Assembly: GCA_026397915.1 (NCBI GenBank)
Contig: JAPLTX010000061.1
Coordinates: 94,731-158,730, forward strand
Direction: 5' to 3'
DNA: 64,000 nucleotides
Source of the DNA: Verrucomicrobiota bacterium
GTDB taxonomy: Bacteria > Verrucomicrobiota > Verrucomicrobiia > CAIQCK01
The first letter of the stretch is position 1. The number at the start of each line of letters is the position of its first letter. The notes under the pieces were generated by a model, which searched no databases, was not told the DNA's origin, and was given only the letters and a program-made list of their open reading frames with translations. Position numbers and translations under genes: made by a program. This document shows, one piece after another, positions 27,985-46,296 of the stretch.

Positions 27985-28050
27985 GATTGTGTCCTCGTTG
28001 GAGTGTTGGAGTTGTTGGAGTGGTGGAGTGATGGAGTGATGGAGAGGCGG

Positions 28051-29186: not shown

Positions 29187-29230
29187 AGCTGAAAGCTGAG
29201 AGCTGAGAGCTGAGAGCTGAGAGCTGAGGG
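29187..29230. repeat. tandem heptamer array (AGCTGAR)n in G-I intergenic region
   Basis: agctgaaagctgagagctgagagctgagagctgagagctgag; one of 8 such arrays confined to the prophage. Confidence 0.8.
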
Positions 29231-29232
29231 GG

Positions 29233-29730
29233 CTACTTCGGACGGCGGCCGGAGATGCTCTCCCACTTCGCCTTCATCGCCTGCCCGATCTTCGTGTGGG
29301 CGAACTTTGCGATGACCTTGCCCACGAAGGGGAAGAACGGGCGCGCGGACAGGTTCCGCGGCGGATAGCCGAACTGGTGCGCGCGCGCGTAGGGCCGGTC
29401 GCTGGCCGCGATGGCGCGGTCGTTCGTTACCGACAGCACGCGGAGGCTGCGCAATAGCGACGTGGTCTTGATGAGCAGCGGCTTGCCATTGACTTTTCCG
29501 GCGGCGTTGCGACGACGGGCGTCGGGGCCGTAGGTGGTCTTGGGGTCGTCGCTCTTGCGGGCGGCCCACGGCGCGGCGCGCAGCGACGGGTCGCGGAACG
29601 AGCGGCGGGCGATGTTGACCAGTTCCTGAGCGCCGGCCCGAAGCACGGGCGCGGCCCGACGCGCCGCCTCGATCTTCCGGCGGAGATCGGGCGTGATGAG
29701 GTCTTGGACAAGACGGACGGTTGGTTTCAT
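29233..29730 (-). CDS. phage virion morphogenesis protein, Mu G-like
   Basis: 165 aa; ...TSLLRSLRVLSV...ARPFF motif of virion morphogenesis family; follows F-like gene. Confidence 0.5.
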   Translation of the reverse strand: MKPTVRLVQDLITPDLRRKIEAARRAAPVLRAGAQELVNIARRSFRDPSLRAAPWAARKSDDPKTTYGPDARRRNAAGKVNGKPLLIKTTSLLRSLRVLSVTNDRAIAASDRPYARAHQFGYPPRNLSARPFFPFVGKVIAKFAHTKIGQAMKAKWESISGRRPK

Positions 29731-29735
29731 TTGAG

Positions 29736-30674
29736 TCAGGCCGCGAGCTTCATACCGTTGAGCCAGTCGAGCAGCGTCACGCCCGGCTCAAGCTCCGTTG
29801 CCTTTGCCATCGTCTCGAACTGCGCGTAGGTGGCCGCGTCGTATTTGGCGCGCAACCCCTCGATGGGCACGGCCAGGCCGTTGGAATTGAGCGGCGTGCT
29901 TCGGAACCGCGCGCCCTTGTTGAGGTCGAACGTCCCCGTGCCGCCGCCCGCGCCGCCAGGGGTGTCGCTCCACTCGATCTTCTTGCCGATGTTCTTGTCG
30001 GCCATGCGCGCGGCCGTCTCCGGGCCGATGGCGATCTGCCCCGCCTCGGCTTGTTGCAGCGCCGCGCCTTCGAGCACGCGCCGGTCGTCGGGATGTTTGT
30101 CCGCGTCCGCGTCGCGGATGGCTTGAGTATCTTCTTTCGTCAGTGCTTCCTTCCAGCAACGGCAGCCCCACTCCTTAAACCGGTCCCAGAACGGCGAGTT
30201 GGCCGGCAACACTTTACCATCAAGCGCCTCGTGCGACGCGCGCACGTTCTCGTCGCCGACCGTGTGCCACTGCCAGTCGGGCATCACGTCGCGCTGCTCG
30301 TCGAGCGCCAGTGTCTGCGTGGCGTCGTAGACGTCATAGGCGTTGGTGCGCAGGACCAGTTCCGCGCGCGCGTTGGACGCCGCCAGTTGTCCGGCCCGCG
30401 TCTCGGCGTCGGCGGACGGGTCCACCATGTGCGGCGAAAACTCGTCGGCGATCCGCCCCTTGATGTCGTTCCAGTCTCCGCCCGCGGGAAGCTCCGCCGC
30501 CAGTTCTCGCACGCGGGCGATGGCGTCGGCGTGCTCCAGCGTGGCCGCCGTGAAGAGCCGCGCCCGCACCTCCGGCAGCATCGCGTCAAACACCTTGCGC
30601 GTCACCGCCGGCTTGCCGGCGAGGAACTTGACGGCCTCTTTGTTTGGAACGGATTTGAGAAGGAATGAGGGCAT
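29736..30674 (-). CDS. phage head morphogenesis protein, Mu F / SPP1 gp7 family
   Basis: 312 aa; NVRASHEALDGKVLP...WGCRCW matches Phage_Mu_F H..L.G and CRC signature. Confidence 0.6.
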   Translation of the reverse strand: MPSFLLKSVPNKEAVKFLAGKPAVTRKVFDAMLPEVRARLFTAATLEHADAIARVRELAAELPAGGDWNDIKGRIADEFSPHMVDPSADAETRAGQLAASNARAELVLRTNAYDVYDATQTLALDEQRDVMPDWQWHTVGDENVRASHEALDGKVLPANSPFWDRFKEWGCRCWKEALTKEDTQAIRDADADKHPDDRRVLEGAALQQAEAGQIAIGPETAARMADKNIGKKIEWSDTPGGAGGGTGTFDLNKGARFRSTPLNSNGLAVPIEGLRAKYDAATYAQFETMAKATELEPGVTLLDWLNGMKLAA

Positions 30675-30702
30675 GGGAAAATGGAGTGTTGGAGTGGTGG
30701 AG

Positions 30703-31149
30703 TTATGGAGTGGCGGCGTCGGCCTGATCCAGCTTGCTGGTCTTGATGCGAAAGTTCAGTTCCCTCGCGACCGCCACGGCGCGGACGATGTAGTCGGGCA
30801 CGTTGGCCGCGTGCAGCGCGCCGAGCATCGTCGCCAGTTCGTTCTCCACGTGCGGCAGGTTGGAACACGCCTCTTCGCGCTTCATGCCGTCGCCAGCGAG
30901 GTAGCGGAGCAGATACTTTTGCAGCGCGTGCTCGTAGATGTCCAAGTCCGCGTGCCGAGCCAGCGGCAGCGCGCCAACCGGGGACGGCGCTTTCATCACA
31001 TCCGTGTGCGGCGGCCTCACGGGCGGCCCTTCCGGCCCGTCGGTGATGGCTTGCAGCGCGGCGGACATTTTATTTCTAAAACCTTCACCCCGACACAGCT
31101 GACAGTTGGCGTCGTTGCAGTATGTTTGATGATCGGAAATCAGTCTCAC
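30703..31149 (-). CDS. hypothetical Cys-containing phage protein (GTG start overlapping rSAM stop)
   Basis: 148 aa; CNDANCQLC motif; GTGA overlap with upstream stop. Confidence 0.3.
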   Translation of the reverse strand: MRLISDHQTYCNDANCQLCRGEGFRNKMSAALQAITDGPEGPPVRPPHTDVMKAPSPVGALPLARHADLDIYEHALQKYLLRYLAGDGMKREEACSNLPHVENELATMLGALHAANVPDYIVRAVAVARELNFRIKTSKLDQADAATP

Positions 31150-31877
31150 GGCTCCACCTCGTTCTTGATCAGCCGGCCAAGGTTCTTCTTCTGGCGGATT
31201 TCAATGCCCGCGCATTGTAACAACCGAATCAGTCGGAGAACGTCATGCTCGTCTGGTTCCACGAGGCCGTGTCCCTTGGAGTCTGCACCAATGTTGACGA
31301 ATGTCGGACGGGCGGCCTCAATCCAGTCAGCCAACTCCACCGGGTTGAAGTCGAGGACCGGCTCTATAGTGATGAACGTCGGCATCGTCGGCCAGTAGGA
31401 CCGAATCCGCTTAAAGTGCGAGATGCGGTTGCGCGGGGCTGGTGCGTCGCCCATGACTTGATGCCACCGATTACTTTCAATCGTGACGCCTACAATGAAG
31501 TTTCCGGGACGGAAGAATCGGTTGTCCGCGAACACGTCGAACAATCGCTCAGGATTCTTCGTCTGAAAAACGAACCTGTTTTCCTTCCACTCGAAGCAGT
31601 GCTGGAGGATAAGGCGAATCCAAGACTCGGGAACGTCGGCAGCAAACAGGTCGCTGCAATGCTCGATGAAGATCGTCTTGCCGGTGCCGTAGTTGACCGC
31701 CAGTTCCTTTTTCTCCAACCGCAGCGGGCCTTTATAGTGACCCGTGCGGTAGCCGGGGCCAGACTTCACGTAGCAGTAGCCGCAACGGTGCGGGCATTCT
31801 CCGCGCAGGTGCGTGTGGGTGTGCGTCACCCAGCCTTGATACATGTTGGAACCGTCTTGGACCTTGGTTAGTGGCAT
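31146..31877 (-). CDS. radical SAM-like enzyme (CxxxCxYC; phage Gp37/Gp68 DUF5131-like)
   Basis: GECPHRCGYCYV cluster-binding motif with aromatic residue before third Cys; 243 aa. Confidence 0.6.
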   Translation of the reverse strand: MPLTKVQDGSNMYQGWVTHTHTHLRGECPHRCGYCYVKSGPGYRTGHYKGPLRLEKKELAVNYGTGKTIFIEHCSDLFAADVPESWIRLILQHCFEWKENRFVFQTKNPERLFDVFADNRFFRPGNFIVGVTIESNRWHQVMGDAPAPRNRISHFKRIRSYWPTMPTFITIEPVLDFNPVELADWIEAARPTFVNIGADSKGHGLVEPDEHDVLRLIRLLQCAGIEIRQKKNLGRLIKNEVEP

Positions 31878-31986
31878 GGTGGGGCCTCCGAAGGTAGGGA
31901 CGGACCGCCGGGCCGTCCGTTGTTTCCAGTCATCGGCGCGCCCAGCGGTCGCGCCCTACCCAGCAGAATGAAAAGAGGCTTGGTGT

Positions 31987-32178
31987 TCATCGCGCGGCCT
32001 CCTGTGTTTTGAACGCCGCCAGTATTTTCCTGAGTGCGGTCTTCTCGGCGTAGAAAACCGTTGACCGCGACAATCCCATCATCCGCGCAACCGTCCTGTG
32101 GCTGCGAATTGGTCCGAGGGCATTCGCCAGGTCTCGCGTTGCTGTTGCGGATGCTCCCCATTTTGTGGTCCTGTTCAT
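31987..32178 (-). CDS. small HTH DNA-binding protein
   Basis: 63 aa; TVARMMGLSRSTVFYAEKTALRKI helix-turn-helix; ATGA overlap with 3D-domain gene stop. Confidence 0.35.
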   Translation of the reverse strand: MNRTTKWGASATATRDLANALGPIRSHRTVARMMGLSRSTVFYAEKTALRKILAAFKTQEAAR

Positions 32179-32677
32179 CGCGCCAGTTCCAGTCCCCCAT
32201 CCGCTCTGCGGTAGGTTCCCGCCGCGAGGCGCTGGCCGGCGGCGATGATCTCGGCCATGCGGCGCTCGAACCGCTCGTCGTCGAGCTTCCGCTGCCACTC
32301 GCGGCGCGTGAGGATCGTCACCGGCATCCATCGCCAGCCGAATCGCTTTGCCTCTTCGTGTGTCGCGAAGAGCAGGTCGAGGCGGTTTGCGCCTTTGATG
32401 TCTCGGCCGGTGTCGTCGGCGCGGTTCCAACGGCCGTTGACGTGGACCATCGAGCCGAGCGGGATGCGGCGAGGGTCCACGGCCACGATCTGGCCGACCG
32501 CCTGCCGCCCCGTGGCCGTGAGGCCGCAGGCATTCGGCCCGCAGCAGATTCGGCACGGGCAATAGGCGGTGACGCGGACCCAGCGGGTCGAGGCGGCGAG
32601 GGCGGGAGATGGGAGATGGCAGATGGCAGATAGGAGGAGCAGGGCAGTCCCCAACTTCCAGCTTCCAACTCCCATCT
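32175..32677 (-). CDS. secreted 3D-domain (MltA/RlpA-like) cell-wall hydrolase, candidate endolysin
   Basis: 167 aa from MGVGSWKL...ALA/AS signal peptide; VRVTAYCPCRICCGPNACGLTATG...GSMVHVNGRWNRADDTG 3D domain. Confidence 0.55.
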
Positions 32678-32692
32678 GCTTCGTTCTCCTCC

Positions 32693-33154
32693 TCACAGCG
32701 CCTCCTGGTAGATTTCCAGATTGGTTTTCCTGACCGTGTGGCTGCCGATCTGCACGTCCACCTTGGTCTGCCAGAACTCCATGTCCTTGCAGCGGTCGCG
32801 GTGGTCGAAATAGCTCTGGAGGCTGAAGTCGTAGTTGCGCGGGCCGACTTGCGAGCCGTCCACAAAGCCGGCGCGGATCAGCCGCACCAGCGTCTTGTAG
32901 TTCACACCCAGGCCGAGTTGCGCGGGGAGCTTGACGGTGAGCCGGAGGTTGCGCGAGTGGATGCGCACGACGGGCCGGTAGGTGCCGTCGCCCGCCGGCT
33001 GCAAATCGTGCAGGCCGACGCGCGGCGCCTGGCCGGCCGGGCACTCGACAACGAACTGCCCCGGCGCGACCTCGACCGTCAACGGCGCGGGGCCGTTCAG
33101 GACGGACACAAGCGAGTGCGGAGTGCGGAGTGCGGATTGCGGAAGAGGTTTCAT
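32693..33154 (-). CDS. hypothetical phage protein
   Basis: 153 aa ORF with ATG start. Confidence 0.3.
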   Translation of the reverse strand: MKPLPQSALRTPHSLVSVLNGPAPLTVEVAPGQFVVECPAGQAPRVGLHDLQPAGDGTYRPVVRIHSRNLRLTVKLPAQLGLGVNYKTLVRLIRAGFVDGSQVGPRNYDFSLQSYFDHRDRCKDMEFWQTKVDVQIGSHTVRKTNLEIYQEAL

Positions 33155-33159
33155 GGCAG

Positions 33160-33567
33160 TCAGAGGTTCAACAGCTTTTGTTCGCGGAGGGCGTTGGCCT
33201 TCGCGGCGGCGAAGAGTCCGCGCGCCTCGAAGTCGGAGCAGGCGCGATAGACGCCGCCGGCGGAAGCGGCGGGAGTTGGGAGATGGGAGTTGGGAGTTAG
33301 GGCCGGAGATTCCACCCTCCCATCTGCCAACTCCGATCTGCCATCTGCTTTACCCACGAGCACCACGAAGCCGAGTTGGTAGAGTTCCGTGACGCGGGGG
33401 CGCATGTCCACGAGAAACAGCGGGTTGTTGGGCCGCATCTTCACCGCCAGTTCCTTCGTCGTGCAAGGGCCGTGGACTTTGAGCGCCTCCAGAACTTCGA
33501 GGCGCAGGTCCACAAGGTATTTGGCCTTGAGGCTGGCGAAGGTTTCGTTCCTAAAATCAACGGGCTT
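33160..33567 (-). CDS. hypothetical phage DNA-binding protein (winged-helix-like N-domain); C-terminus reads through a tandem repeat
   Basis: MKPVDFRNETFASLKAKYLVDLRLEVLEALKVHGPCTTKELAV. Confidence 0.3.
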   Translation of the reverse strand, partial: KPVDFRNETFASLKAKYLVDLRLEVLEALKVHGPCTTKELAVKMRPNNPLFLVDMRPRVTELYQLGFVVLVGKADGRSELADGRVESPALTPNSHLPTPAASAGGVYRACSDFEARGLFAAAKANALREQKLLNL

Positions 33568-33771
33568 CATAATTAAGCGCAAGCCTCAGTTGCACCCCCC
33601 CCCATTTTGGATTTGGCGCTTGTGCGCGGCGCAGACTTGAACGCGATAAGCTTCGCCGCTGCTCGTGTCGGTAAACGTGCCGTTGGCGATGTGATGACAG
33701 CCTGGCCACTTGCAGTAGAACGGCGCGCGGCCCCGCGTGGTCTTGGTGCTGAAGAGTGTTTTCATGGCAGT

Positions 33772-34344
33772 TCAGAACGGGATGTCGGCGGTTAGGGCTG
33801 CCGGCTGAGGGCTGAAAGCTGAAGGCTGAGAGCTGACAGCTTTGCGCCGATTCCTCACCGTGTAAACGAGACACCAGACCTGACGCTCGGTTGCCTCGGC
33901 CAGGCTGCACTTGAACTGCCTGCGGCAGATGGCGGCGGCGTAGCTCTCGTGCAGGCCGCGCTCGCGGAGGGACTCGCGCAGCTTGAACATCGCCAGCCGG
34001 ATCGGCTCGGTCGCCACGCGTTCCTCCGCGCGCCGCGCCGCCGCGGCGTTGCCTTTGAGCATAAGGAACCGGCCCTCGATGAGTTTGTATTCGCGCTGTG
34101 TCGCGCCACGCAAAGACGTGTAGCCGCACGCAAACATTTGCTGGGTGTGCCGCCAGTCGTCCAACTCGCCCTGGCTGGCGGCGGGCCGGCCATAGACCTC
34201 CTCGAACGCCTCGCGCGCTAGGATGCAGAGGTGCGCCTTCTGGCCGTTCTCGAGAGGCGCGCTGGGCGACGGCACGGGCCGTCCGCTGCCGTGGCGAAAC
34301 ACGGCGCGGAAGTCGTCGCTCATGATGTCGGCGGGGATGATCAT
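33772..34344 (-). CDS. GemA-like (Mu gp16 family) regulatory protein, tentative
   Basis: 190 aa; KAHLCILAREA...DDWRHTQQMFACGYTSLRGATQREYKLIEG pattern resembles Mu GemA family. Confidence 0.3.
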   Translation of the reverse strand: MIIPADIMSDDFRAVFRHGSGRPVPSPSAPLENGQKAHLCILAREAFEEVYGRPAASQGELDDWRHTQQMFACGYTSLRGATQREYKLIEGRFLMLKGNAAAARRAEERVATEPIRLAMFKLRESLRERGLHESYAAAICRRQFKCSLAEATERQVWCLVYTVRNRRKAVSSQPSAFSPQPAALTADIPF

Positions 34345-34375
34345 ATTGAAGCTCCCAGCTTTCAGCTCTCAGCTT

Positions 34376-34630
34376 TCAGTTCTCATTTGCGGGAGTGATG
34401 GAGTGTTGGAGCGATGCTTGTTCCAACGCGCGCGCAATTCTATCCACCGCGTCGGTTACAAGGTCGTGATATGAAGCCTGCCTTCCCGCCAAGGGAACAA
34501 CGCAAGTCTTTGAGACCCCGCCTCCGGCGTTGGTGATGGCCACGTAGATTACAACTCCGTTTTCTTCTAACGCCGTCTTCGCCAGCTCCTGGCCAAGGTT
34601 GAAGCAAGTGTTTATATACACAGCCTTCAT
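34376..34630 (-). CDS. small hypothetical phage protein
   Basis: 84 aa from MKAVYINTCFNLGQ; ATGA coupling to upstream gene. Confidence 0.25.
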   Translation of the reverse strand: MKAVYINTCFNLGQELAKTALEENGVVIYVAITNAGGGVSKTCVVPLAGRQASYHDLVTDAVDRIARALEQASLQHSITPANEN

Positions 34631-34995
34631 GATTCCTCCTCGCACTGCTGGCAGATGCAGTTGTTCCCGCCGGGGTTGCAGCAGGCGGTGGAGCCTGGCA
34701 GGTTGCAGCGCGGGCATTCATAGACCGCGTGGATCGCGGGGTCGAATGTCATGCCGCACTTCGGGCACTTGGCGTCCGCTGATTGCTCGGCGATGATCTG
34801 GCCGAGCGTCTTCCACGGATAGCCCTGCAACACCGGCACGAGCCGGATGTCAACGCTGCGCTCCGTCAGAAACTTCGCGGCCTCCGCGAGCGTGTCGCAC
34901 TGGTGGACCACGCGCCACGATCCGCTCCCTTGTTTGATCTGCCAGCGGTCCTGCCCGACGCGTTTGCCGATGCGATATTCTTCCTTCACGCTGCC
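34627..34995 (-). CDS. zinc-ribbon phage protein (CPKC...CPRC)
   Basis: GTG start overlapping Gam-like stop; C-terminal double CxxC. Confidence 0.3.
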   Translation of the reverse strand, partial: GSVKEEYRIGKRVGQDRWQIKQGSGSWRVVHQCDTLAEAAKFLTERSVDIRLVPVLQGYPWKTLGQIIAEQSADAKCPKCGMTFDPAIHAVYECPRCNLPGSTACCNPGGNNCICQQCEEES

Positions 34996-35513
34996 TCCTG
35001 TGCCGGCGTCTCGGCGGCGGTTTCGGGCTTGGGGCGGATGAAGAACTGTTCGTCCTGGCAGAACTGGATGCCGAGGGCGGTCTGCTTTTCCGGCGTGAGC
35101 GTCTCGCGGTCGGCCAGCAGCGCGTCCTTGTCCAGACTGAGCTTGGCGCGGACATAGACTTTGCTCCACGAGGCTTTGACGGCGCGCTTGATGACGTCGG
35201 CCCACTTGATCTTCTTGTTGGCCGTCTCCACGCGGTGCGGCGTCATCTCGAAGCCGAACACGGCGAGGCTGGTCTCGCGGCTCTTCTTGTCGGTGAACAG
35301 CCCGCCACGGTTGGCCGCGCAGAAGGCGAGGATGGTTTCCTCGTCGAGCGTGATCTCGGCTTCCTTCTTTGTGATGCCGGCTTGGTGCTGTTTCTCAACG
35401 GCGGCGACCTCGGTGTCCTTGGCGGCTTTGAGCGTCGTCAGTTCGATGCGTTTGCGCACGACGGCGGCAACAGCCGTGTCGAGCGATTCGGGTGATGTGA
35501 TTTTTAGATTCAT
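34986..35513 (-). CDS. gam: host-nuclease inhibitor protein Gam-like (Mu Gam family)
   Basis: 175 aa; N-terminal coiled coil then ...FCAANRGGLFTDKKSRETSLAVFGFEMTPHRV... as I recall the Mu Gam core (WCEANRDELT...VSWRVRPPSV; motif recalled from memory, not checked against a Mu Gam sequence). Confidence 0.5.
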   Translation of the reverse strand: MNLKITSPESLDTAVAAVVRKRIELTTLKAAKDTEVAAVEKQHQAGITKKEAEITLDEETILAFCAANRGGLFTDKKSRETSLAVFGFEMTPHRVETANKKIKWADVIKRAVKASWSKVYVRAKLSLDKDALLADRETLTPEKQTALGIQFCQDEQFFIRPKPETAAETPAQEAA

Positions 35514-35529
35514 AGTTGGCAGTTTCCTT

Positions 35530-35928: not shown

Positions 35929-36125
35929 CGTGTTGCCTCCGATTTGGAACGGATGTTTACGGCCGTCATCAGACAGAATTCCACCCGGATAGCGGCCTCC
36001 TCGAAGTCCTTGAGGAACTTCCGGCCTTCAGTGTCGAGTTTGTTGTTCTTGATCTCGCGCAGCACTGCGGTGAGTTGGTCGTAGGCGAGACGGAGCCTGA
36101 ATGCCTGAACGTCGTTGATCTTCAT
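35925..36125 (-). CDS. small hypothetical early protein ending ...SEATR
   Basis: start MKINDVQAF in RBS-start cassette; ATGA overlap. Confidence 0.25.
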   Translation of the reverse strand: MKINDVQAFRLRLAYDQLTAVLREIKNNKLDTEGRKFLKDFEEAAIRVEFCLMTAVNIRSKSEATR

Positions 36126-37871: not shown

Positions 37872-37888
37872 TGTAGCTCTTTCTGGTT

Positions 37889-39880
37889 TCAGGTTTCGAT
37901 CAGGTCACCGCGGGCGCGGGCTTCGGCCTCGCGTTTGGCGATGTAATCGGCCGCGGCAGTGCGGTCGAAAGAGACGCGGGAAACGGCCGGGGCCGTTCCT
38001 CGCGTTGAAAATGTGGCCGGCTCGGTATCGGTGTCTCTCGCGTTTGCGGCGGACTCGCCGAGCCGGCTCACCGTGTCGTGGTGTGTAAGTGGAGATTGGA
38101 GTTTGGAGATGGCGACGCGGCTGACGTTGCCCCGGCCGTCGCTGTCGAGGTGGACAACGGCGGCGCGTCCGGTGCTCTCGATGGCCGCGAAGCTCGAGCG
38201 CACCTGGGCGGTGCGGAGCTTGCGCGCGGCGGTGGCCGGCGAACGGTAACCCTCGCAATCAACGAACTGCGGCCCGTCGGCACTCCAGGGAGCGATGCCG
38301 ATGAACTGGAACCGCTTCCAGTTCTCGCGATTCATCGGGCGCGTTTCGTTATTGAAGAGCGCACAGCCGGCCTCCGGCGCGAGCGGGTCGAACCGCGCGA
38401 TGACGCGGTGGCCGCGCTCGATGAACGGAAAAGCCGCCGTCGCCACGTGGAACCGAAACGGGCGCGCATAAGGCGCAACGGAAACCTGCACATGGCCCGC
38501 GAGTTTGGTGCCGACGCCGACCTCGCTGATGGTCGGCTTGAAAAACCAGAACTCCTCCTCGCTCACCGCCGGCAGCGATCCGCCGCGCGCGGCCATGTCG
38601 CGCTCCCACGTCACGTCGGGAGCTTCCGCTTTGAGGCCGTCAACCTTGCGCGCCCGCTTGTTCAGGAACTGGCAGCCGGCGACAAGCTTTTGGATCAGCA
38701 CCTCGCCCCACGGAATGAAGCCGCACTTGGCCGGATCGGCCTTGCCCTTGTTCACGGCCATCATGTCATCGGTAGGCTGCTCGTATTCGCCGCGCGTCTT
38801 GCCGATGCGCACGCCATGCACGCCCATGATCTTGTGGAACGGCCGAAACGAGGACTCGATGCCGCCCTTGGCGTTGGAGGAGAAAACGTGGTCCACGGGG
38901 ATGACGCTGGCGATGCCGCCCCAGCGGTTGCCGGCGTCGTCAATCTGAATACCGTCGAGCGCGTTGTTTTCCCAGCGACCGCGTTCGTCGCGGAAACGGC
39001 CAAACCGCCCCCAGCGCCGCGTGAGAAGTTCCTTGAACCGCGCGATGTCCTCGGCGCGGTAGCTGTCCGCAAAGCGCGCGATGGGATAGACGCCGAGCCA
39101 CTTGCCGCTGCGCACGTCGCGCGCCATCAGGATTTGACGCCCCACGCGCCAGTAGCCGTCCGGGTCCATCCAGAAAAACGGAACGTCGGTTGACACGTCG
39201 TCAAACTCGATGATGTCCCCGCTGTTCACAGGCACCCATGCGCCGTGGTCGTCGTAACCGTAAAAGCCGCGGCGCACGCTGAAGACGATGCTCCGCAGCG
39301 CGTCGCGGCTGCGCGCCGCTGCCATTTCCTCCTGCGTCACGCGCACGTCGCGCATGATGCTTTGCGGGTATCGGCCCGTCAGCCGGTTCGCGGCGAGGGC
39401 CTCGCGGACCTCCGGCCGGCACACCGGCGAGTCGGCCATCAACTCGATGCCCATTGGCACGCTCTCGGTCTTTAGGACAAACGTGCGGGCGAGCTTCTTC
39501 TCTGCGTCGTTGAGGTTCACTTTTTTCTTTCGCCCGCAGTTCTTGTATTGCCGGCCGAGCTTTTCCTCGCCGCCGGCATCGAGCAGCCGCGCGTAGCGCA
39601 ACAGCGTGCAGTGCGGCTTGCCGAGTATCCGAGCCGCCTCCGCCGCGCTCGACGCCATCGGCGGCTGGCCGTTCTCTCCGGGCTTTTGCAGCGCGCGCCA
39701 CTCGCGCACGAGCGACGCGCGGCGTTGCTTCCAGGCGTTGTCCAAGGACTGCGGAGTCGGAACCGCCGCCGCGGCGTCGCTGGAAACAATCGCGCCCGGA
39801 GGTCGCGATCCACCTGTAGCGGCGGTCTCTGACCGCCGATCCGGCGCGGGCGAGGAGTTCGCCCCCGCGCAGTGTTGCAT
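37889..39880 (-). CDS. Mu-type DDE transposase (MuA-like)
   Basis: ORF 37889..40132; central rve/DDE core (SGDIIEFDDV..., ...VIPVDHVF...), N-terminal HTH; start uncertain (39880 or 39658); ~590-664 aa. Confidence 0.75.
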   Translation of the reverse strand: MQHCAGANSSPAPDRRSETAATGGSRPPGAIVSSDAAAAVPTPQSLDNAWKQRRASLVREWRALQKPGENGQPPMASSAAEAARILGKPHCTLLRYARLLDAGGEEKLGRQYKNCGRKKKVNLNDAEKKLARTFVLKTESVPMGIELMADSPVCRPEVREALAANRLTGRYPQSIMRDVRVTQEEMAAARSRDALRSIVFSVRRGFYGYDDHGAWVPVNSGDIIEFDDVSTDVPFFWMDPDGYWRVGRQILMARDVRSGKWLGVYPIARFADSYRAEDIARFKELLTRRWGRFGRFRDERGRWENNALDGIQIDDAGNRWGGIASVIPVDHVFSSNAKGGIESSFRPFHKIMGVHGVRIGKTRGEYEQPTDDMMAVNKGKADPAKCGFIPWGEVLIQKLVAGCQFLNKRARKVDGLKAEAPDVTWERDMAARGGSLPAVSEEEFWFFKPTISEVGVGTKLAGHVQVSVAPYARPFRFHVATAAFPFIERGHRVIARFDPLAPEAGCALFNNETRPMNRENWKRFQFIGIAPWSADGPQFVDCEGYRSPATAARKLRTAQVRSSFAAIESTGRAAVVHLDSDGRGNVSRVAISKLQSPLTHHDTVSRLGESAANARDTDTEPATFSTRGTAPAVSRVSFDRTAAADYIAKREAEARARGDLIET

Positions 39881-40150
39881 GAAGCCAATAACCGAGGCCG
39901 GCAGACGATCTCCATCTGCGCCATGCTGCGCGCTGCCGAATCGGCGGTCAGAGACTGCCGCTGCAGAAAGCTGAGAGCTGAAAGTTGAAAGCTGAGGACT
40001 GCGATCTCCCGCCGCAACGTCGGGGCGCGTTGCGGCGGGCGGGGGTTGGTTCTGGCCTGTGAACGGCGCGGGCACAATCGCCCCGGTCAACTCCGCGCCG
40101 CTCCGCGTCTTGTTGGTTATAGAATCGTGCATGGCCAGATGGCGGGAACG

Positions 40151-40423
40151 TCAGGGGTTTGGAAGTGTGCCGAGCAACGCGGCGAATCCGCCCGCTCTCC
40201 AGGCTTTGGCAATCTGCTTGATGTGCCGCGGATTCGTGTCATTCGCGTAACACGCGCCGGCCAGCGTGTCGCCCGCGACCATCTCGTCGTAGATGCCTTG
40301 CAGGAGTTTCAACCGGCCGATGGCGACCTTTAATTGATGGTTCGTCGGGCCAACCGGACGCCGGGGGACTTCCGCGCTCACAAACAATCGCCGGAGAACT
40401 TCTTTACGCCGGTCGCCCTTCAT
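40151..40423 (-). CDS. small hypothetical early protein
   Basis: 90 aa between ParB-like gene and transposase. Confidence 0.25.
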   Translation of the reverse strand: MKGDRRKEVLRRLFVSAEVPRRPVGPTNHQLKVAIGRLKLLQGIYDEMVAGDTLAGACYANDTNPRHIKQIAKAWRAGGFAALLGTLPNP

Positions 40424-41265
40424 CGCGCCTCCTCGACTTTGCGGATGGAGCTTTTGAAGAACTTCATGTCGTCGGGTTCGAGGCCCGCCAGCGCCTGAGC
40501 CAGCCGGGCGAGTTTCTCGCGCCGCATGGTTAGGTTGGTGATCTTGGCAATGTAGGGAATGCGGTTGCTGATCGTGCGGACCATGTCATCCCACAAGAGC
40601 ATCTGCTGATGAACAACCCGCTTCTTGCCCTTCGTCGCTTCCCGTCCGGCCACCGCGGCGAGGATTTGCTGAAAGCCGGCCTTGCCTCCAAGCAGCAGCG
40701 GCTCGTATTCAGCCTTGATGTCAGGGCGGGCCTTGAACAGCTTGTGTATCTTCCCCGCGAGGCCGATTACGTCTGTCGAAATGCCCAGCCTGGAGGATAC
40801 GTCAGCCTGGGTTTTGCACCCTTCCACCCCCCGGAAGCCTAATTTTTCGGCTTTCGAGGTTTCTTGGGCTTTTTGGCCATTTAAGTTCGCCAAACTGCGT
40901 TTTCGGCTTTCGGCGAAAATCGGCTCAAGAAGGGTGTAGAGGAGGTAGGCGAGGGCGCTTTTGCTGAAGTGCCGGCGGGCCATCAGGCTCTCGCCGACGA
41001 TGGTGGCGGACTCGCCATCGCCGACCTGACGGACGGGCACTTCGGAGAGTCCGGCGGCCCGCGCCGCCCGGCTCCGGTGCCGGCCATCCACGATCCGGTT
41101 CTTGCTGTCAATCAGCACCGGATAGTCCAAGCCGCGCGCGCGGATGCTGGCGATCATGGCCAGGAAGTGCGGATCGTTCTCGGCGAGCATCGGGCCGAGG
41201 TCGGCCGTGGGATGGTGGGTGAGTTGATCCAGATTCATCATGACGATCTTGTTCGGTGTCTCCAT
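40420..41265 (-). CDS. ParB-like nuclease-domain protein
   Basis: 281 aa from METPNKIV; ...DYPVLIDSKNRIVDGRHRSRAARAAG ParB/Srx box II-like motif. Confidence 0.6.
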   Translation of the reverse strand: METPNKIVMMNLDQLTHHPTADLGPMLAENDPHFLAMIASIRARGLDYPVLIDSKNRIVDGRHRSRAARAAGLSEVPVRQVGDGESATIVGESLMARRHFSKSALAYLLYTLLEPIFAESRKRSLANLNGQKAQETSKAEKLGFRGVEGCKTQADVSSRLGISTDVIGLAGKIHKLFKARPDIKAEYEPLLLGGKAGFQQILAAVAGREATKGKKRVVHQQMLLWDDMVRTISNRIPYIAKITNLTMRREKLARLAQALAGLEPDDMKFFKSSIRKVEEAR

Positions 41266-41342
41266 GTTCTTCTTTCCTTTTGGGGTTGGTTGTTGGCAGT
41301 GACTGCGGCAAAAGTTGAGAGCTGAAAGCTGAAAGCTGAGGG

Positions 41343-41558
41343 TTAAGAGTTGGGGGCGGGGTTGGTTGGAGTGTTGGAGTTGTGGAGTGATGGAGTGTTG
41401 GCGGCCTCTCCAAACCATTCGCATCCGCAGCCGGCCTCGCGGCACTCGCGCTCGAAGCAATCGTGCTTGTAGCGGTCGTGGCCGCAGACGCAGGGGCGAA
41501 GCAGCGCGGCGCTGCCGGGAGGAAGATGGTCGGCGATGATTTGAAACCCCGTCTTCAT
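41343..41558 (-). CDS. small Cys/His-rich hypothetical protein
   Basis: PCVCGHDRYKHDCFERECREAGCGCEW; uncertain. Confidence 0.2.
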   Translation of the reverse strand: MKTGFQIIADHLPPGSAALLRPCVCGHDRYKHDCFERECREAGCGCEWFGEAANTPSLHNSNTPTNPAPNS

Positions 41559-42025
41559 GGTTGCTCCGGTAGGGCGCGACCGCTGGGCGCGCCGAGGGGG
41601 TCGGATCGGCCGGCCCAGCGGTCCGTCCCTACCGCCGCCGCGCTCGTTTCCACGATGAGACTCCACAGCCGGTCCACGATCTGGCGCGTTTCGGTCCAGC
41701 GCGTGGCGGCGGCGTTGTGCGCGAGGGCCAGCGCCTCCAGCTCGCCGCCGATGTGCTCCAGACCGTCATCGCGCTCGATGCGCTCCAGTAGCGCGCGCAG
41801 CCCGCCCCATCGGCCCTGCATCTCGCGGCACTCGCTGATCAGGCGCTTCAGTTCGATCTGGCGAGGGGAAAGGGCCGTCAAGGCTGAGGGCTGAGGGCTG
41901 AAGGCTGAAGGCTGAAGGCCGACCGATGAGGGCTGAAGGCTGAGGGCTGAAGGCTGAAGGCCGACCGATGAGGGCTGAAGGCTGAGGGCTAAAGGCTGAC
42001 CACTGATCGCTGGCTTGGTGTTCAT
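41555..42025 (-). CDS. hypothetical protein whose N-terminal region is encoded by heptamer tandem repeats
   Basis: ATG overlaps upstream stop (ATGA); LQPSSVG repeats from 7-nt DNA repeat; C-terminal helical region. Confidence 0.2.
   Translation of the reverse strand: MNTKPAISGQPLALSLQPSSVGLQPSALSLQPSSVGLQPSAFSPQPSALTALSPRQIELKRLISECREMQGRWGGLRALLERIERDDGLEHIGGELEALALAHNAAATRWTETRQIVDRLWSLIVETSAAAVGTDRWAGRSDPLGAPSGRALPEQP
41878..42000. repeat. long tandem heptamer array (GGCTGAR)n with 54-nt higher-order duplication
   Basis: ggctgagggctgaaggctgaaggccgaccgatgag unit repeated twice. Confidence 0.8.
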
Positions 42026-42398
42026 CGGCTCAACTCCTTTTCGATGCGGTCGAGTTCGCCGCTGATAACCGCGACGCCCCGCCGGATGGAGGCCAGCGCA
42101 TCGGACGCCGCACGATGAGAGCAGAGGCGGCAACGCTCTGCTGGGGGCGCAATGCAATGTTCCTTGCGAACTTCGGCATCGAACTTGGTGCTGATAATGG
42201 CCCATCCGAAGATCGGCGGGAGACTGCCGTCTGAGGGAACAAAGAGTCTCGACCAACACTTGTGGCAAAATGAGTTCCGCGATTCTCCTCGCAGATAACA
42301 ACCGGGAATCCCGGCCAGCGTGGTTAGCGAGTCCAACCGTGGATTCGTGCGGCTCGTCTCCAAACCGCAGAGCCAGCAACGTAGTTGAGTTTTCATCG
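42022..42398 (-). CDS. zinc-finger hypothetical protein (CWLC...CHKC...CRLC)
   Basis: 125 aa from MKTQLRCWLCG; ATGA overlap with Ner-like stop. Confidence 0.3.
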
Positions 42399-42575
42399 TC
42401 CAATCTCCTTTTCCAGCGCCGCGAGAATCTCCTGCGAGCGGCGGTCTGAGCGGTGGCCGTGTAGCGCGCGGCTGACCTGCGAGCGGTTGAACCTGTGCGC
42501 CCGGCTCCACTTGGCCAGCGAGCTTCGGCGGGAAACCAGCGACCCTTTCAAAACGTCTGGATCAATAACGGCCAT
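42393..42575 (-). CDS. ner: Ner/Nlp-like DNA-binding protein
   Basis: 60 aa MAVIDPDVLKGSLVSRRSSLAKWSRAHRFNRSQVSRALHGHRSDRRSQEILAALEKEIGR matches Ner family pattern D..VI.AL...G.SL..LSR..G....VS.AL.G......EII..AL. Confidence 0.5.
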   Translation of the reverse strand: MAVIDPDVLKGSLVSRRSSLAKWSRAHRFNRSQVSRALHGHRSDRRSQEILAALEKEIGR

Positions 42576-42681
42576 TTTGGTGTTGCCTTTCGCGGCTTCC
42601 GGCGGGACTCTCAGCGAAGTTGTAACAGGTCGTGCCATTTGACGGGCACCCTTTTAAGCAAATTTGCTGGCGCTGTCAACA

Positions 42682-43125
42682 ATGAATAGCAATTTTGTTA
42701 AAGATTTTTCTGACCGTCTGTCGGGGTTGATGGCCGAGCGGGGATTCACGCAACAACAACTCGCCGACAAGATCACGTCCTCGCAGACGAGCGTGTCGCA
42801 CTGGCTTCGAGGAAATGTCCCTTCCAGGCGAGCACTCAAGACACTCGCGGACTGTTTCAGTGTGAACATCGAATGGCTGCGATCCGGCCAAGGTTCGCGC
42901 GTGCCAGCGTCTGTTGTTCGCGAGACCGTAGAGGTCGCATTGGGTGGAGAAATAAAAGACCATAAGCTCATGCTCGAAACGTTGATCGGTGGAATGCAGA
43001 CGCCGCAGCTTCAGGACTTGGTGATAGAGCAAACGCGGCTCGGAAATGTGGGTTTAGTGTTGTTGCTTGGAACAGAGTTGAGTAAACGTAGGGACGTGAA
43101 GCGCAGAACGGAGACAAGGAAATGA
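42682..43125 (+). CDS. XRE-family (Cro/CI-type HTH) transcriptional regulator, candidate prophage repressor
   Basis: RGFTQQQLADKITSSQTSVSHWLRGNVPSRRALKTLADCFSVNIEWL; divergent from ner-like early operon. Confidence 0.6.
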   Translation: MNSNFVKDFSDRLSGLMAERGFTQQQLADKITSSQTSVSHWLRGNVPSRRALKTLADCFSVNIEWLRSGQGSRVPASVVRETVEVALGGEIKDHKLMLETLIGGMQTPQLQDLVIEQTRLGNVGLVLLLGTELSKRRDVKRRTETRK

Positions 43126-43601
43126 GACTGGCACTGATTCTGATGGTGGCGCTGGCGGGTGCGACGGCGCGCGGAGCGGAAAACCAAATTCTCTACGCGA
43201 ACAAGGCGGAGTGCATCAAATGGATTGGCCGGTCCAACGTCGAGGTTGATTTCAAGGCGTCGTTTTGCAGCGCCGTGCAGGCCAAATACCATGTTGGCTT
43301 AATGCAAGTGGACGCCTTCTACGTGGACGGTCGAATCCAGCATGTTCGATATTCCGGCGCGAGCCGTCCGGTGGCGGAGGCGATTGTCCGCCAAAACACC
43401 GCGGGCCAAGAGTGGAAGCCGGGCGGAAATGGGAAAGCCGTCGAATGGAAACGCTCGGATGGAGCCAGCGCATGGTGGGCACCGAACACGCTCGTGCTCC
43501 AAACCAAAGAGTGGCCGGGCATCCTGAAGAGAATAGCCGACGAGCGGCCGGGGGCGCGAGGGCGCGGCAGGGCAAGCGCCCAAAACGGCAAGGAGAACTA
43601 A
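43122..43601 (+). CDS. secreted hypothetical protein (signal peptide)
   Basis: MRLALILMVALAGATARGAE; paralogous N-terminus to next gene. Confidence 0.4.
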   Translation: MRLALILMVALAGATARGAENQILYANKAECIKWIGRSNVEVDFKASFCSAVQAKYHVGLMQVDAFYVDGRIQHVRYSGASRPVAEAIVRQNTAGQEWKPGGNGKAVEWKRSDGASAWWAPNTLVLQTKEWPGILKRIADERPGARGRGRASAQNGKEN

Positions 43602-43605
43602 GACA

Positions 43606-44250
43606 ATGAGACTGGCACCAATTCTAATCCTGTCGGCTGCGGTTTTGGCGGAAGCGGGCGCGCAGACGATTTATCACGATTCAATCTCGCGGCTTACGGG
43701 CAGAGTTGGCGGGATGGGCGGCGGTGACATCTCGTTCACCAGCGCGAATGGACGGGCTGGCGTGCCGGAGGAAATGCGGACTGGCGGCAAGGTTTATCCC
43801 AACGTGCGGTTTGGCCCTGCCAAGGGCGAGCAGGTGTTTGTCTCGTGGAACGGCGGCTCCGGCTGGATGCACGCGATGTTTTTGCCGGAGGAAGTTCAAC
43901 GGCGGTTTGGGTTCAACACGGCACAACTCCGTGAGGCGCGCGAAGCTGCGGAACTGGAGTCCGCGCGCGTCGCCGAGATCAAACGCCAGGAACGCATTGA
44001 GAAATACGGGGAGACGTTCAACGGGAAAGTGCAGCAAGTCATCAAAGACGGCCTGCTGGTTTCGATTGGAGAATCTTACGGCGTCGGCGATTCGCTGTTG
44101 TTAACCGGGCATCCGAAAGAGGCCACGATGATCGAAGACATTCGCATCCGCTTTCTCGCCAAACCGGCCGGGCGCTATCAGTTTGTCAGTGTGACCGGCG
44201 CGACGCGCACGATCAGCAAGTGGTCTTACATCGGCGAGCCGCACGACTGA
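43606..44250 (+). CDS. secreted hypothetical protein (signal peptide, coiled coil)
   Basis: MRLAPILILSAAVLAEAGAQ signal peptide. Confidence 0.4.
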   Translation: MRLAPILILSAAVLAEAGAQTIYHDSISRLTGRVGGMGGGDISFTSANGRAGVPEEMRTGGKVYPNVRFGPAKGEQVFVSWNGGSGWMHAMFLPEEVQRRFGFNTAQLREAREAAELESARVAEIKRQERIEKYGETFNGKVQQVIKDGLLVSIGESYGVGDSLLLTGHPKEATMIEDIRIRFLAKPAGRYQFVSVTGATRTISKWSYIGEPHD

Positions 44251-44334
44251 CGCGCGGCACCCTTTTGGTGAAACGATGGCCACGATGGCCACGCTGCTTG
44301 GCGGTCGGCGCGCGGGGGCGCGTAGGCTGGCCGC

Positions 44335-44769
44335 ATGTTTACGGCAGCCATCAGCTCTCAGCTCTCAGCTCTCAGCCTTCCACTCCTTACCGCCGCGCCG
44401 ATCACACTCGATAACTCCACCGTCGTCACCGTCGGCATGATCGTGGCCGTGGCGGCGATGGTGAAGTGGGCGACGGACATCTGGGCCAACATCCGGCCCA
44501 ACCGCTCCTTTGACGACAAGCTGGTGGCGGCGCTGACGGCGTGCCAGGGGCAGTGCTCTAAAAATCTCAAGGTGGCCACCGACGACATCGAGGTGATCCA
44601 GGCCGACCGCCGTCGCAACACGACGGACCTCTGGAAGGAAATCAACGGCCTGAAGGAAACGATCCAGACGTTCTCGAACGACTTGAACCGCGCGCTGGGC
44701 CGGCTGGAGGGGCGGGCGGAAATGCTCGACGCGGTGCGCGACGTGATCGCGAAGAAAACGAAAGACTAA
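44335..44769 (+). CDS. membrane protein, holin-like candidate
   Basis: 144 aa with TM segment VVTVGMIVAVAAMVKW; upstream late-promoter-like motif. Confidence 0.3.
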   Translation: MFTAAISSQLSALSLPLLTAAPITLDNSTVVTVGMIVAVAAMVKWATDIWANIRPNRSFDDKLVAALTACQGQCSKNLKVATDDIEVIQADRRRNTTDLWKEINGLKETIQTFSNDLNRALGRLEGRAEMLDAVRDVIAKKTKD

Positions 44770-44806
44770 CCCCCAACGGCGCGCCCAGCGGTCGCGCCCT
44801 ACCTAC

Positions 44807-45085
44807 ATGACACCCGATCCCATTTTTGTCCGCGCCGCCGAATGCCGGCGGGCGGTGCGCGATTACCTGGCCAAGCGCCTTCGCCTGGCGTTCGAGCTGT
44901 CGGCTGTCCGCTCGGCGGTAAACCGAACCGGCGGCGACTGGAGCGACGAGGAAGTAAACAGCGCGCTCGTGTATCTGGCGGGCCTGACGCCGCCGCACGT
45001 GAAGACGGTTCGCGACAAGCTTGGCCCCACGCTCTACTACCAGGCGACCACCGGGGGCGTGCAAGCAATGGAAAACGGGGATTAA
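44807..45085 (+). CDS. hypothetical phage protein
   Basis: 92 aa ORF. Confidence 0.2.
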   Translation: MTPDPIFVRAAECRRAVRDYLAKRLRLAFELSAVRSAVNRTGGDWSDEEVNSALVYLAGLTPPHVKTVRDKLGPTLYYQATTGGVQAMENGD

Positions 45086-45092
45086 CCAGACG

Positions 45093-46058
45093 ATGAAACC
45101 GATTCGTTACAAGCTCGGCAAGGTGGCTATCCCGCAGTCGGCGCTGCTCAGGATCGGCGCGGCCATCGTGTGGCGCAACGCGGCCATCGTGGGCTTCCTT
45201 TTTTCGCTGCTCGTCATCGCGCTGCTGCTGACCGGCTGCGCTAATTCCGCACTCCGCACTCCGCACTCCGCAATTCCGCCGATGCCGCCGAAGCCAACGA
45301 CGGCGGCGACGGCCGGCGCGATTGAGAGCGCCACTGCGAACGCCAGCGAGGCGCAGACCAGCGTCCGGGCCGGGCGCGACCTGGCCAAACAAGACGAGGG
45401 CTTGAAGGCGGTGCCGCATCTGGACAAGGCGGACGCTCAACTCGACACGACGCGCGCCGATCTGGCGGCAGCGAAGGCGCACGCGACGGAACTGGAGGGG
45501 AAGATTGCGGCGGATCGGGCGGCGCACGATATGCAGGCGACCGCCTACCAATCCCAGATTGGAAATTTGAAATCTGAGATGGCCGCCGGGGCGGCGGCGA
45601 ACAAGAAGCTGGCGAAGGAAAACACCGACCTAAAGAACGAAGTGCTGCGCAAGGCGCAACTCGTGATCGGCGGCGCTGGCTCGTTCCTGCTGCTCGTGGC
45701 CGCCGGCTGTTTTGCTGCGTGGATCTGGCTCGGCTTCGGCGCGGGCTGGAAGGTGGCGCTGGTGTCGGCCACGGTCGGCGCGGCGGCCCTCGCGCTGGCG
45801 ATGATGCTCAAGGCCATCGTTGTCTCGACGATTGTGGCGCTGGCGGCGTGCGCCGTGGCGGCGCTCGGCTACGCGGCGTGGCACCTGTGGCGGGACAGCC
45901 GCGATACGCTGGCCAGCGTCGTGGAGGGCGTGGAAACCGCAAAGGCCGGACTCGACCCGGAGGCGGTATCGAAGCTCCACACCATGCTGCGGTTCAAGAC
46001 GAGCGATGCCGACAAGAAGCTGATCGAGCTACTCAAATCGAAGCTCAAGCTGTCATGA
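45093..46058 (+). CDS. membrane lipoprotein with coiled coil and C-terminal TM segments (spanin-like lysis accessory candidate)
   Basis: lipobox LLTGC after hydrophobic stretch, long coiled coil, multiple C-terminal TMs. Confidence 0.3.
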   Translation: MKPIRYKLGKVAIPQSALLRIGAAIVWRNAAIVGFLFSLLVIALLLTGCANSALRTPHSAIPPMPPKPTTAATAGAIESATANASEAQTSVRAGRDLAKQDEGLKAVPHLDKADAQLDTTRADLAAAKAHATELEGKIAADRAAHDMQATAYQSQIGNLKSEMAAGAAANKKLAKENTDLKNEVLRKAQLVIGGAGSFLLLVAAGCFAAWIWLGFGAGWKVALVSATVGAAALALAMMLKAIVVSTIVALAACAVAALGYAAWHLWRDSRDTLASVVEGVETAKAGLDPEAVSKLHTMLRFKTSDADKKLIELLKSKLKLS

Positions 46059-46270
46059 GCGCGACCCGACATTTACCGGCGCGGCGGGCGCTCCGCCGAC
46101 TGGCGGCGGCGTCGGCGCAGATGCTCGGCGGGGACGTGGCCGTGTGCCTGACAGTGGCCGGGCCGAAGGGCGCGCGCGTGGAGCGTTACCTGTGCAGCGC
46201 GGTGGACGCGATGGCGCTGGCGACGATGCTGCAACTGGCGGTGGCGCGGGCCGCGAAGGCTGAGAGCTGA
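46055..46270 (+). CDS. small hypothetical protein
   Basis: 71 aa; ATGA overlap with upstream stop. Confidence 0.2.
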   Translation: MSATRHLPARRALRRLAAASAQMLGGDVAVCLTVAGPKGARVERYLCSAVDAMALATMLQLAVARAAKAES

Positions 46271-46296
46271 AAGCTGAAAGCTGAAAGCTGAAAGCT
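46257..46296. repeat. tandem heptamer array (AGCTGAA)n upstream of terS
   Basis: gctgagagctgaaagctgaaagctgaaagctgaaagct. Confidence 0.8.

Follow-up and report, generated by a model that had tools for sequence, protein, structure and literature searches.

A heptameric unit, RGCTGAR, is tandemly repeated in eight arrays within a Mu-like prophage, on a 64,000-nucleotide (nt) stretch of a Verrucomicrobiota metagenome-assembled genome (contig JAPLTX010000061.1, positions 94,731 to 158,730; the whole stretch is hereafter called the window). The arrays are tandem direct repeats dispersed across 17 kb, and arrays of the same kind, built from this unit or from others, recur at the same junctions in related phages. 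They are read here, tentatively and at slightly less than an even chance, as heptameric leader repeats that would be transcribed and would work through the RNA, at translation-initiation regions or close to them. A first-pass annotation, made from the letters of the same DNA, had seen in them candidate binding sites for a ParB-like protein of the phage. The ParB-site reading is not supported, and of the readings considered a role in translation leaders currently fits best. Where the arrays lie, how they are oriented and distributed, and how their unit turns over were established directly, within the window and by comparison with relatives of the prophage.

The arrays were located by Tandem Repeats Finder together with direct reading of the sequence, and are as follows.

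Array 1, 29187..29230, + strand: six units of AGCTGAR; messenger RNA (mRNA) from the - strand has CTCAGCT.
Array 2, 33795..33840, + strand: about six units of GCTGARR; the mRNA form is pyrimidine-rich.
Array 3 (inverted), 34356..34386, - strand: four units; the mRNA has GCTGARA.
Array 4, 39967..39999, + strand: about five units within the 270-nt leader of the A gene.
Array 5, 41314..41342, + strand: four units, starting from the stop codon (41343) of the upstream 72-residue gene.
Array 6, 41878..42000, + strand: 17 units over 123 nt, in frame with ATG 42025.
Array 7 (inverted), 44351..44377, - strand: 3.7 units; + strand mRNA has TCAGCTC.
Array 8, 46257..46296, + strand: six units; + strand mRNA has GCTGAAA.

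The first-pass annotation had listed eight arrays at these places, and all of them are present. A pattern of three tandem GCTGARR units with at most one mismatch (GCTGARRGCTGARRGCTGA) gave 31 matches in eight clusters, compared with 0.00 in dinucleotide shuffles, and all 28 occurrences of GCTGANNGCTGA in the window fall within 29188-46280. The arrays are non-random and mostly placed at gene junctions, as had been claimed. The core G-C-T-G-A is 92-98% constant over the 52 units that were parsed; at positions 6 and 7, A and G each make up about half. The shortest array has 3.7 units and the longest 17.

Six of the eight arrays (1, 2, 4, 5, 6 and 7) present YTCAGCY in the mRNA, and arrays 3 and 8 present GCTGARR. 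The upstream stop codon is abutted or contained by the array in five of six intercistronic cases. Array 1 lies 4 nt past the stop of the G-like gene (29233) and about 72 nt ahead of the protease I start (TTG 29115). Array 2 is found inside the 3' tail of a 190-residue gene (33772-34344, - strand), about 30 nt ahead of the next start (33765). Array 4 is 87 nt upstream of the annotated ATG of the A gene (39880) and is flanked by a strong hairpin (40006-40035) and a conserved CGGCAGTCnnnGACCGCCG motif, while array 5 is 48 nt ahead of the ParB-like start (41265) and is adjoined by an octamer array at 41365-41401. Array 7 lies at the 5' end of a holin-like open reading frame (ORF; 44335-44769, + strand), just past ATG 44335. 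Array 3 provides the TGA stop (34376) of the upstream 84-residue gene and ends 11 nt before ATG 34344, with its end giving GGGAG about 8 nt ahead of that codon; similarly, array 8 provides the TGA of the ORF that precedes it (46268-46270), and its end is 3-6 nt short of the terS ATG (46303).

The longest array, array 6, contains a higher-order repeat that had been described as a 54-nt duplication; the repeat is in fact 42 nt, or six heptamers, in 2.7 copies with 95% matches. The array either encodes an N-terminal QPSALSL low-complexity tract, with ATG 42025 as the start, or is a non-coding leader that runs as far as TTG 41878. It may be a leader rather than coding sequence, because the homologue of this ORF in the related phage L225 aligns only from just past the array, at TTG 41878. 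ORFs run through the arrays solely on the stop-free strand. In three SRA runs, the assembled contigs agree with the window at every position of arrays 2-5 (100% identity), the four arrays that this comparison covered; the whole 6-7 kb is identical in these contigs, which probably represent one strain. Two contigs of independent assemblies begin inside array 8, at an assembly break.

Six relatives of the prophage (L225, L226, L228, L332, L333 and L334) were found through homologues of its A protein and then through the contigs that carry them; no relatives came to light when viral contigs were searched with the MuB-like protein. The A protein of L225, the closest relative, shares 68% identity with that of this phage, and those of L226, L332 and L333 share 42-45%. 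These last three phages have the unit of this prophage. L225 carries about 12 heptamer arrays of other units (TCAGAAG, CACTGCC, GATGGAA and CACCAAT), L334 has CTACTCG about 22 nt ahead of the F start, and L228 has almost no arrays. Junctions with arrays recur across the family with different units, namely upstream of the ParB-like gene, in the A leader, upstream of Gam and upstream of F, and at one of these junctions the array period differs as well as the unit. The A-leader arrays of this phage and L225 fall on different sides of two conserved hairpin motifs. Thus, the two arrays expanded independently, and positional identity between them, which had been considered, was rejected.

In L226, L332 and L333 the transcribed-strand form, (G/A)CTCTCA in two to four copies, was found at 22 places, of which 21 are sense to the local genes and 20 precede a called start codon by 0-30 nt. 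The most enriched words in 231 leaders were TCTCA (11.9-fold), CTCTC, CAACT and TCAAC, with a range of 5.6- to 11.9-fold. In these relatives, a Shine-Dalgarno-like motif occurs in none of 19 leaders bearing (G/A)CTCTCA, as against 23 of 87 others (Fisher p=0.011). The arrays of the three phages have 2-4 units, compared with 4-17 in the window. Of 56 arrays counted across the family, 42 have the pyrimidine-rich, G-poor strand as their mRNA strand; for this prophage the figure is 21 of 24 (p=2e-4). A manual count of GCTGAGA-type arrays in this prophage and in L226, L332 and L333 gave 15 pyrimidine-rich and three purine-rich.

Under the proposed translation-leader role, the arrays would be transcribed as part of polycistronic mRNAs and would make up the leaders between cistrons in this phage family, inside the translation-initiation region or immediately ahead of it. 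At that place they might affect translation as a G-poor platform that replaces the Shine-Dalgarno sequence, with ribosomes loaded through S1 or by standby binding, or re-initiating after the upstream stop. Alternatively, the arrays may be sites for a host post-transcriptional regulator. Arrays 3 and 8 would offer stop codons in three frames and a purine-rich, Shine-Dalgarno-like stretch right before the next ATG. Copy number and unit would both change by slipped-strand mispairing, the unit not being fixed. A more specific proposal, which we consider rather unlikely, is a swappable Shine-Dalgarno-independent 'leader code', in which a host trans-factor would read a lineage-specific 7-nt unit set in tandem ahead of start codons, and transposable phages would rewrite the unit throughout their leaders to suit each host. 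The factor might be ribosomal protein S1, some cold-shock-type protein or a different RNA binder. A code of this type would explain the different units at the same junctions in close relatives, with each genome internally uniform.

Arrays of this unit are not restricted to the phage family. Stretches with at least four GCTGARR units numbered 99 in IMG/VR, and a tblastn search of these stretches with the proteins of this phage gave three weak matches only. GCTGARR arrays were further found in at least 120 stretches of species-representative genomes; among the genome stretches listed, Acidobacteriota, Verrucomicrobiota, Planctomycetota and Gemmatimonadota are frequent. In ten genome cases that were checked, the neighbours were ordinary chromosomal genes (carA, cinA, lactonase, patatin, T2SS-F and a response regulator). 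The idea of a phage-specific system is thus contradicted, since arrays flank carA, cinA, lactonase, patatin and T2SS-F genes in chromosomes of Verrucomicrobia, Acidobacteria and Planctomycetes. Permuted control heptamers also form arrays in viral contigs, CGTGARR in 31 stretches and GTCGARR in 81, compared with 99 for GCTGARR, and GTCGARR and GCTGARR arrays co-occur on several contigs. A special status of the GCTGA motif was rejected on these counts, and what is general is therefore the tandem repetition of heptamers of many different sequences. Period 7 is far ahead of periods 5, 6, 8 and 9, both in the array-bearing viral stretches and in every member of the phage family. All in-ORF copies are antisense to GCTGANN, i.e. 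stop-free (three in the window, 21 viral and 13 genomic). Clustering of the ORFs of the array-bearing viral stretches revealed no common protein family, none being present in more than 28 of 202. A common trans-factor was likewise rejected, the largest clusters being by eye ordinary phage proteins.

The window itself contains about 35 other tandem arrays of 7-8 nt, host flanks included. The statement that the arrays are confined to the prophage consequently stands for this unit in this window, but not for short tandem arrays as such, as the host flanks carry many others of 7-8 nt. By manual count, the prophage has 7-8-nt arrays at a density of about 0.7 per kb, as against 0.35 per kb for the flanks. 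Octamers of GGAGTNNT occur in host DNA at 4072, 4131, 57113, 57984 and 62768, and in the prophage at 19725, 25103, 27133, 27997, 30681, 34392 and 41365. The GTTGGAGT octamer family has host ranges at 4072-4160, 57075-57134, 57984-58019 and 62735-62812. Further heptamers in the window include GGGAGAT, GGGAGTT and GAGTGCG, and GGGAGWT arrays at 32604, 33271 and 35536 conform to a G3N4 pattern. The main companions are listed here.

27997..28044, + strand: companion octamer array, (GTTGGAGT)6; the mRNA has AWCACTCC, and about 15 nt separate the end of the array from a start codon.
32604..32680, no strand assigned: inverted pair of heptamer arrays, GGGAGAT/GGCAGAT followed by CCAACTT/CCCATCT, forming an intergenic hairpin.
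33271-33348: second inverted pair of heptamer arrays.

Over 59 arrays of 7-8 nt, the mean absolute GC skew is 0.59, which indicates strong strand asymmetry, and the arrays are on average less structured than the background (z=+1.0). RGCTGAR is one local unit family among several G-poor or strand-asymmetric 7-8-nt families at gene junctions. Intergenic hairpins composed of a GGAGTNNT-type array and an inverted array were also noticed in the host DNA (1-95, 4072-4160, 57075-57134 and 62735-62812), and the elements at about 57067-57203 and 62729-62879 are 76% identical copies of a dispersed repeat. Within the prophage, the heptamer GAGTGCG (33114-33143) and its complement TCCGCAC (45246-45272) lie in opposite orientation 12 kb apart, one in each prophage arm.

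Several observations weigh against the translation-leader role. The (G/A)CTCTCA elements of L332 and L333 are not independent counts, because these two phages are closely related, and the exclusion of Shine-Dalgarno motifs from leaders that bear the element is partly compositional. Closeness to start codons is partly automatic, since intergenic gaps in these operons are short. In the window, the pyrimidine-form arrays are 30-87 nt from the next start, farther than in the relatives, and array 5 is followed by a Shine-Dalgarno-like AAGGAAAG of its own. The AGCU palindromes of GCTGARR arrays fold at -10 to -15 kcal/mol, similar to the background; a function as 'unstructured spacer', true for other repeat families, was rejected for these arrays, which fold about as well as the background. 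In the wide sample of 99 viral and 120 genome stretches, selected only for GCTGARR arrays, orientation relative to the flanking genes is about 1:1 (viral 74:70, genomic 34:28), and convergent junctions are more numerous than divergent ones. The leader role is therefore not universal for the GCTGARR unit, and a strand-specific role of the Rho or Shine-Dalgarno type across all genomes is not supported by this 1:1 orientation.

The main rival is that the arrays are neutral microsatellites, formed by slippage from short leader motifs and tolerated only in intercistronic gaps and at protein termini on the stop-free strand, with no function; the orientation bias would then follow from the strand that can accommodate them. 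We consider this possible, at something under one chance in three. It accords with the 31 and 81 viral stretches bearing permuted heptamers beside the 99 with GCTGARR, with the difference in unit between close relatives, with the independent expansion in the A leader of this phage and L225, and with the lack of orientation bias in the wide sample. The constant stop-free orientation of in-ORF copies and the unremarkable folding of GCTGARR arrays fit it as well. However, local slippage alone does not predict one unit at eight junctions here and at 22 places in three relatives, with an orientation of 21:1. The dominance of period 7 over 5, 6, 8 and 9 in every family member also speaks against neutrality, as does the cost in recombination that identical arrays at scattered sites impose on a phage of 36 kb. 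Transcript punctuation, i.e. Rho loading (rut), RNase processing, or the terminator or antiterminator elements suggested in the first-pass annotation, would suit an mRNA form that is C-rich and G-poor (three C to one G per unit) and stands right after stop codons, and other families do make long intergenic inverted-pair hairpins (32604-32680, 33271-33348 and 4072-4160). Yet no terminator-like sites were found at the arrays and such sites are not enriched (19 found, 19.7 expected); no promoter-like signal coincides with the arrays, and no Rfam model matches them. The arrays, at 20-45 nt, are below the typical length of a rut site, GCTGARR arrays are solitary rather than inverted pairs, and an element at a third of the relatives' junctions would make the operon highly polar. 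Punctuation therefore seems very unlikely. Much the same must be said of contingency (phase-variation) tracts, in which gain or loss of 7 nt would switch frame or spacing, mainly at arrays 6 and 7, much as in the heptanucleotide tract of the phage-borne neuO gene; this we judge highly improbable. Period 7 is not a multiple of three, array 6 is in frame with ATG 42025, array 7 comes just after ATG 44335, lengths span 3.7-17 units, and heptanucleotide phase variation reportedly has precedents (PMC13001214; PMC8262952). The majority of arrays are, however, intercistronic, the array-6 homologue aligns only after the array, so that this tract may be non-coding, and there is no sign that surface or host-range genes take part. 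The identity of arrays 2-5 across three sequencing runs also speaks against contingency, weakly, as the runs probably sampled the same strain.

The last alternative is that the arrays are iterated DNA sites for the ParB-like protein or another phage regulator, comparable to KorB/SopB sites or iterons. The gene concerned is the following.

40420..41265, - strand: ParB-like gene, 281 residues; weak ParB_N match (E=8.7e-4) and matches to PHROG ParB-like families (1e-6 to 1e-8).

This gene adjoins arrays 4 and 5, and the GCTGA core is nearly constant (92-98%) while the two adjacent positions vary freely, as a recognised site might. P1 ParB recognises heptamer boxes, which also counts for a DNA site. 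In addition, Geobacter repeats of similar type have been annotated as putative global-regulator sites (PMC2700814). A binding role for the ParB-like protein is nonetheless unlikely, because nothing in the phage co-varies with the unit and because arrays are found in chromosomes and in unrelated viral stretches. Homologues of the protein occur in all six relatives whatever their unit, and the best matches (38-39% identity over about 230 residues) are in L228 and L334, which have almost no arrays or other units. No phage gene is exclusive to phages that bear this unit. Arrays of identical type stand beside housekeeping genes of chromosomes from several phyla; they are also present on viral stretches that encode almost no proteins matching those of this phage, and no protein family reaches more than 28 of the 202 array-bearing viral stretches. 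Further, a 7-bp period sets successive sites on different faces of the helix, and within the family the bias of the arrays with respect to transcription argues for RNA rather than double-stranded DNA. The arrays, as tandem direct repeats spread over 17 kb, are neither palindromic or dyad sites nor a single-locus parAB-type site, and no ParA-type match was obtained among the phage ORFs that were scanned, which were not all of its ORFs. Altogether, DNA sites of this kind have little probability.

The prophage is inserted in a histidine-kinase gene, which it splits into an N-terminal part (Tll0287/PAS/HisKA_2; 13442-15085) and a HATPase_c part (50785-51090). Terminal inverted repeats are present as TTTGAAACGG at 15070 and CCGTTTCAAA ending at 50706. 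The kinase split and the inverted-repeat ends thus place the prophage at about 15070-50706, with all eight arrays inside. Further copies of CCRTTTCAA occur near the right end at 50598 and 50677, and these, together with the terminal repeats, are probably transposase binding sites; no clear target-site duplication was identified at the prophage ends. The element and those of its genes whose roles were assigned by position are given below.

About 15070-50706, 35.6 kb, - strand: Mu-like transposable prophage with inverted-repeat ends and Pfam matches to gpT, I, G, F, Gam, AAA_22 and Portal_Mu.
37889-39880, - strand: A protein, in transposase position; role from gene order only.
46303-47013, + strand: terS; role from gene order only.
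47019-48713, + strand: terL; role from gene order only.

The early and head arm is transcribed on the - strand, from 42.7 to 15.1 kb, in the order ParB-like, A, B and Gam, on through F, G, I and T. On this strand the Pfam matches are gpT, protease I, G, F, Gam and a MuB/TniB-like AAA_22 ATPase. The other arm, with the lysis, terS, terL and portal genes read outward on the + strand, extends from 43.1 to 50.3 kb and includes the Mu-type portal (Portal_Mu). A rearrangement of the terS/terL/portal arm was considered and rejected: its opposite-strand position is the norm of the family, because the six relatives have the identical architecture. The layout kept by this Mu-like family is unusual in that the portal lies beside the host junction, and portal and F are found at opposite ends of the element. 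The A protein had no match in sequence searches of PHROGs, Pfam or PDB, and the terL and terS proteins had no PHROG or Pfam match; the terL match divides into two pieces in the relatives. An inverted-repeat motif, CGGCRGTCnnnGACCGCCG, occurs twice in the leader or N-terminal region of the A gene (about 39945-39965 and about 39830), with counterparts in L225 at about 9712-9735 and 9860-9885, and its copies may be operator or enhancer sites. Two large ORFs on the - strand contain 27-nt and 54-nt tandem repeats (16951-18544) that encode Pro/Thr-rich linkers (PTPTSPSATPT...); these are ordinary coding repeats, unrelated to the heptamers. In the host flank, a 76-nt duplicate with 87% identity (55171-55246 and 55996-56071) resembles a repeated gene-end fragment and sits in an otherwise gene-poor stretch (55.0-57.3 kb).

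For decades, heptamer repeats between genes have been reported from cyanobacteria, Geobacter, Xanthomonas and Beggiatoaceae, and none is known to have a demonstrated function. To this known kind, the present arrays add a new host phylum, the context of a transposable phage and evidence for unit turnover at conserved junctions. In some members of the phage family one oriented unit stands ahead of a third of the start codons, and other units occupy the same junctions elsewhere. The family thus offers a compact test system of about 35 kb with dozens of junctions. Should the repeats drive or tune Shine-Dalgarno-independent translation, they would constitute an added initiation signal for Verrucomicrobia and their phages, and such a role would account for a class of repeats that is widespread among bacteria; if neutral, they are ordinary genome texture. 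In practical terms, the arrays break short-read assemblies, as array 8 does.

The classical case of such repeats is reportedly the STRR heptanucleotide arrays of cyanobacteria, described by Mazel et al. in 1990. In Geobacter metallireducens, multicopy sets of hepta- and octanucleotides in 4-5 tandem copies have been proposed as sites for a global regulator (PMC2700814). The Geobacter class MTYCTGA matches the CTTCTGA unit of L225. Like the Geobacter and STRR repeats, the present arrays comprise genome-specific units of 7-8 nt at dozens of loci, mostly intergenic and with some inverted pairs. They differ in the phylum of the host, and neither a phage context nor a link to start codons has been described for those repeats. 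The sites of ParB-parS, KorB and SopB systems are similar in being repeated short motifs near a parB-like gene; unlike them, the present arrays are tandem and non-palindromic, with a 7-bp period, and do not track the ParB-like gene across relatives.

In Xanthomonas and Nostoc, GGGNATC heptamers are found no more than 50 bp ahead of ORFs, and their G-rich strand is the antisense one (Rehm et al., 2015; PMC4692102). They are spread genome-wide and over-represented between co-oriented ORFs (PMC4692102). As in that system, the mRNA of the present arrays mostly carries the C-rich strand, and the GGGAGAT and GGGAGTT arrays of the window fit G3N4. However, only the GCTGAGG variant yields GGG, the units being mostly GCTGAGA, GCTGAAA and GCTGAAG, and GCTGARR arrays show no preference for four units. 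A quadruplex is therefore not expected for GCTGARR, as most units are without a G3 tract.

The closest description of the present arrays is that of the TAACTGA heptamers of marine Beggiatoaceae, of which 132 of 170 sets face a start codon without a ribosome-binding site (MacGregor, 2015; PMC4679880). In-ORF copies of TAACTGA are reverse-oriented, S1, Csp or CsrA have been suggested as readers, and the repeats are also found in cyanobacteria and Bacteroidetes (PMC4679880). Both systems have a 7-nt unit in tandem (two to six or more copies for TAACTGA) and many dispersed sets of one unit, which are mostly intergenic, with some sets overlapping the end of the upstream ORF. TAACTGA sets are mostly oriented to the downstream start; of the 22 sets in L226, L332 and L333, 21 are sense and 20 are within 30 nt of a start. 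In the window, this orientation and closeness are less uniform, with six of eight arrays in one orientation, the pyrimidine forms 30-87 nt from the start, and two in the opposite orientation at 3-11 nt from an ATG; in the wide sample there is no bias. Repeat-bearing leaders are mostly without a Shine-Dalgarno sequence in both cases (in the relatives, none of 19 as against 23 of 87 others), in-ORF copies occur in the stop-free orientation only, and the spread over phyla is patchy. The unit here, RGCTGAR, is different, and so represents the same kind of element in another sequence family. The start-facing form is the pyrimidine-rich, stop-free strand, whereas that of TAACTGA is the stop-containing strand. 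Further differences from TAACTGA are the transposable phage as carrier, arrays of up to 17 units, a distance of 30-87 nt from the start, compared with 1 nt for TAACTGA, and the existence of several unit families. Thus, the present arrays share the defining features of the known heptamer-repeat kind, with no single unit sequence in common.

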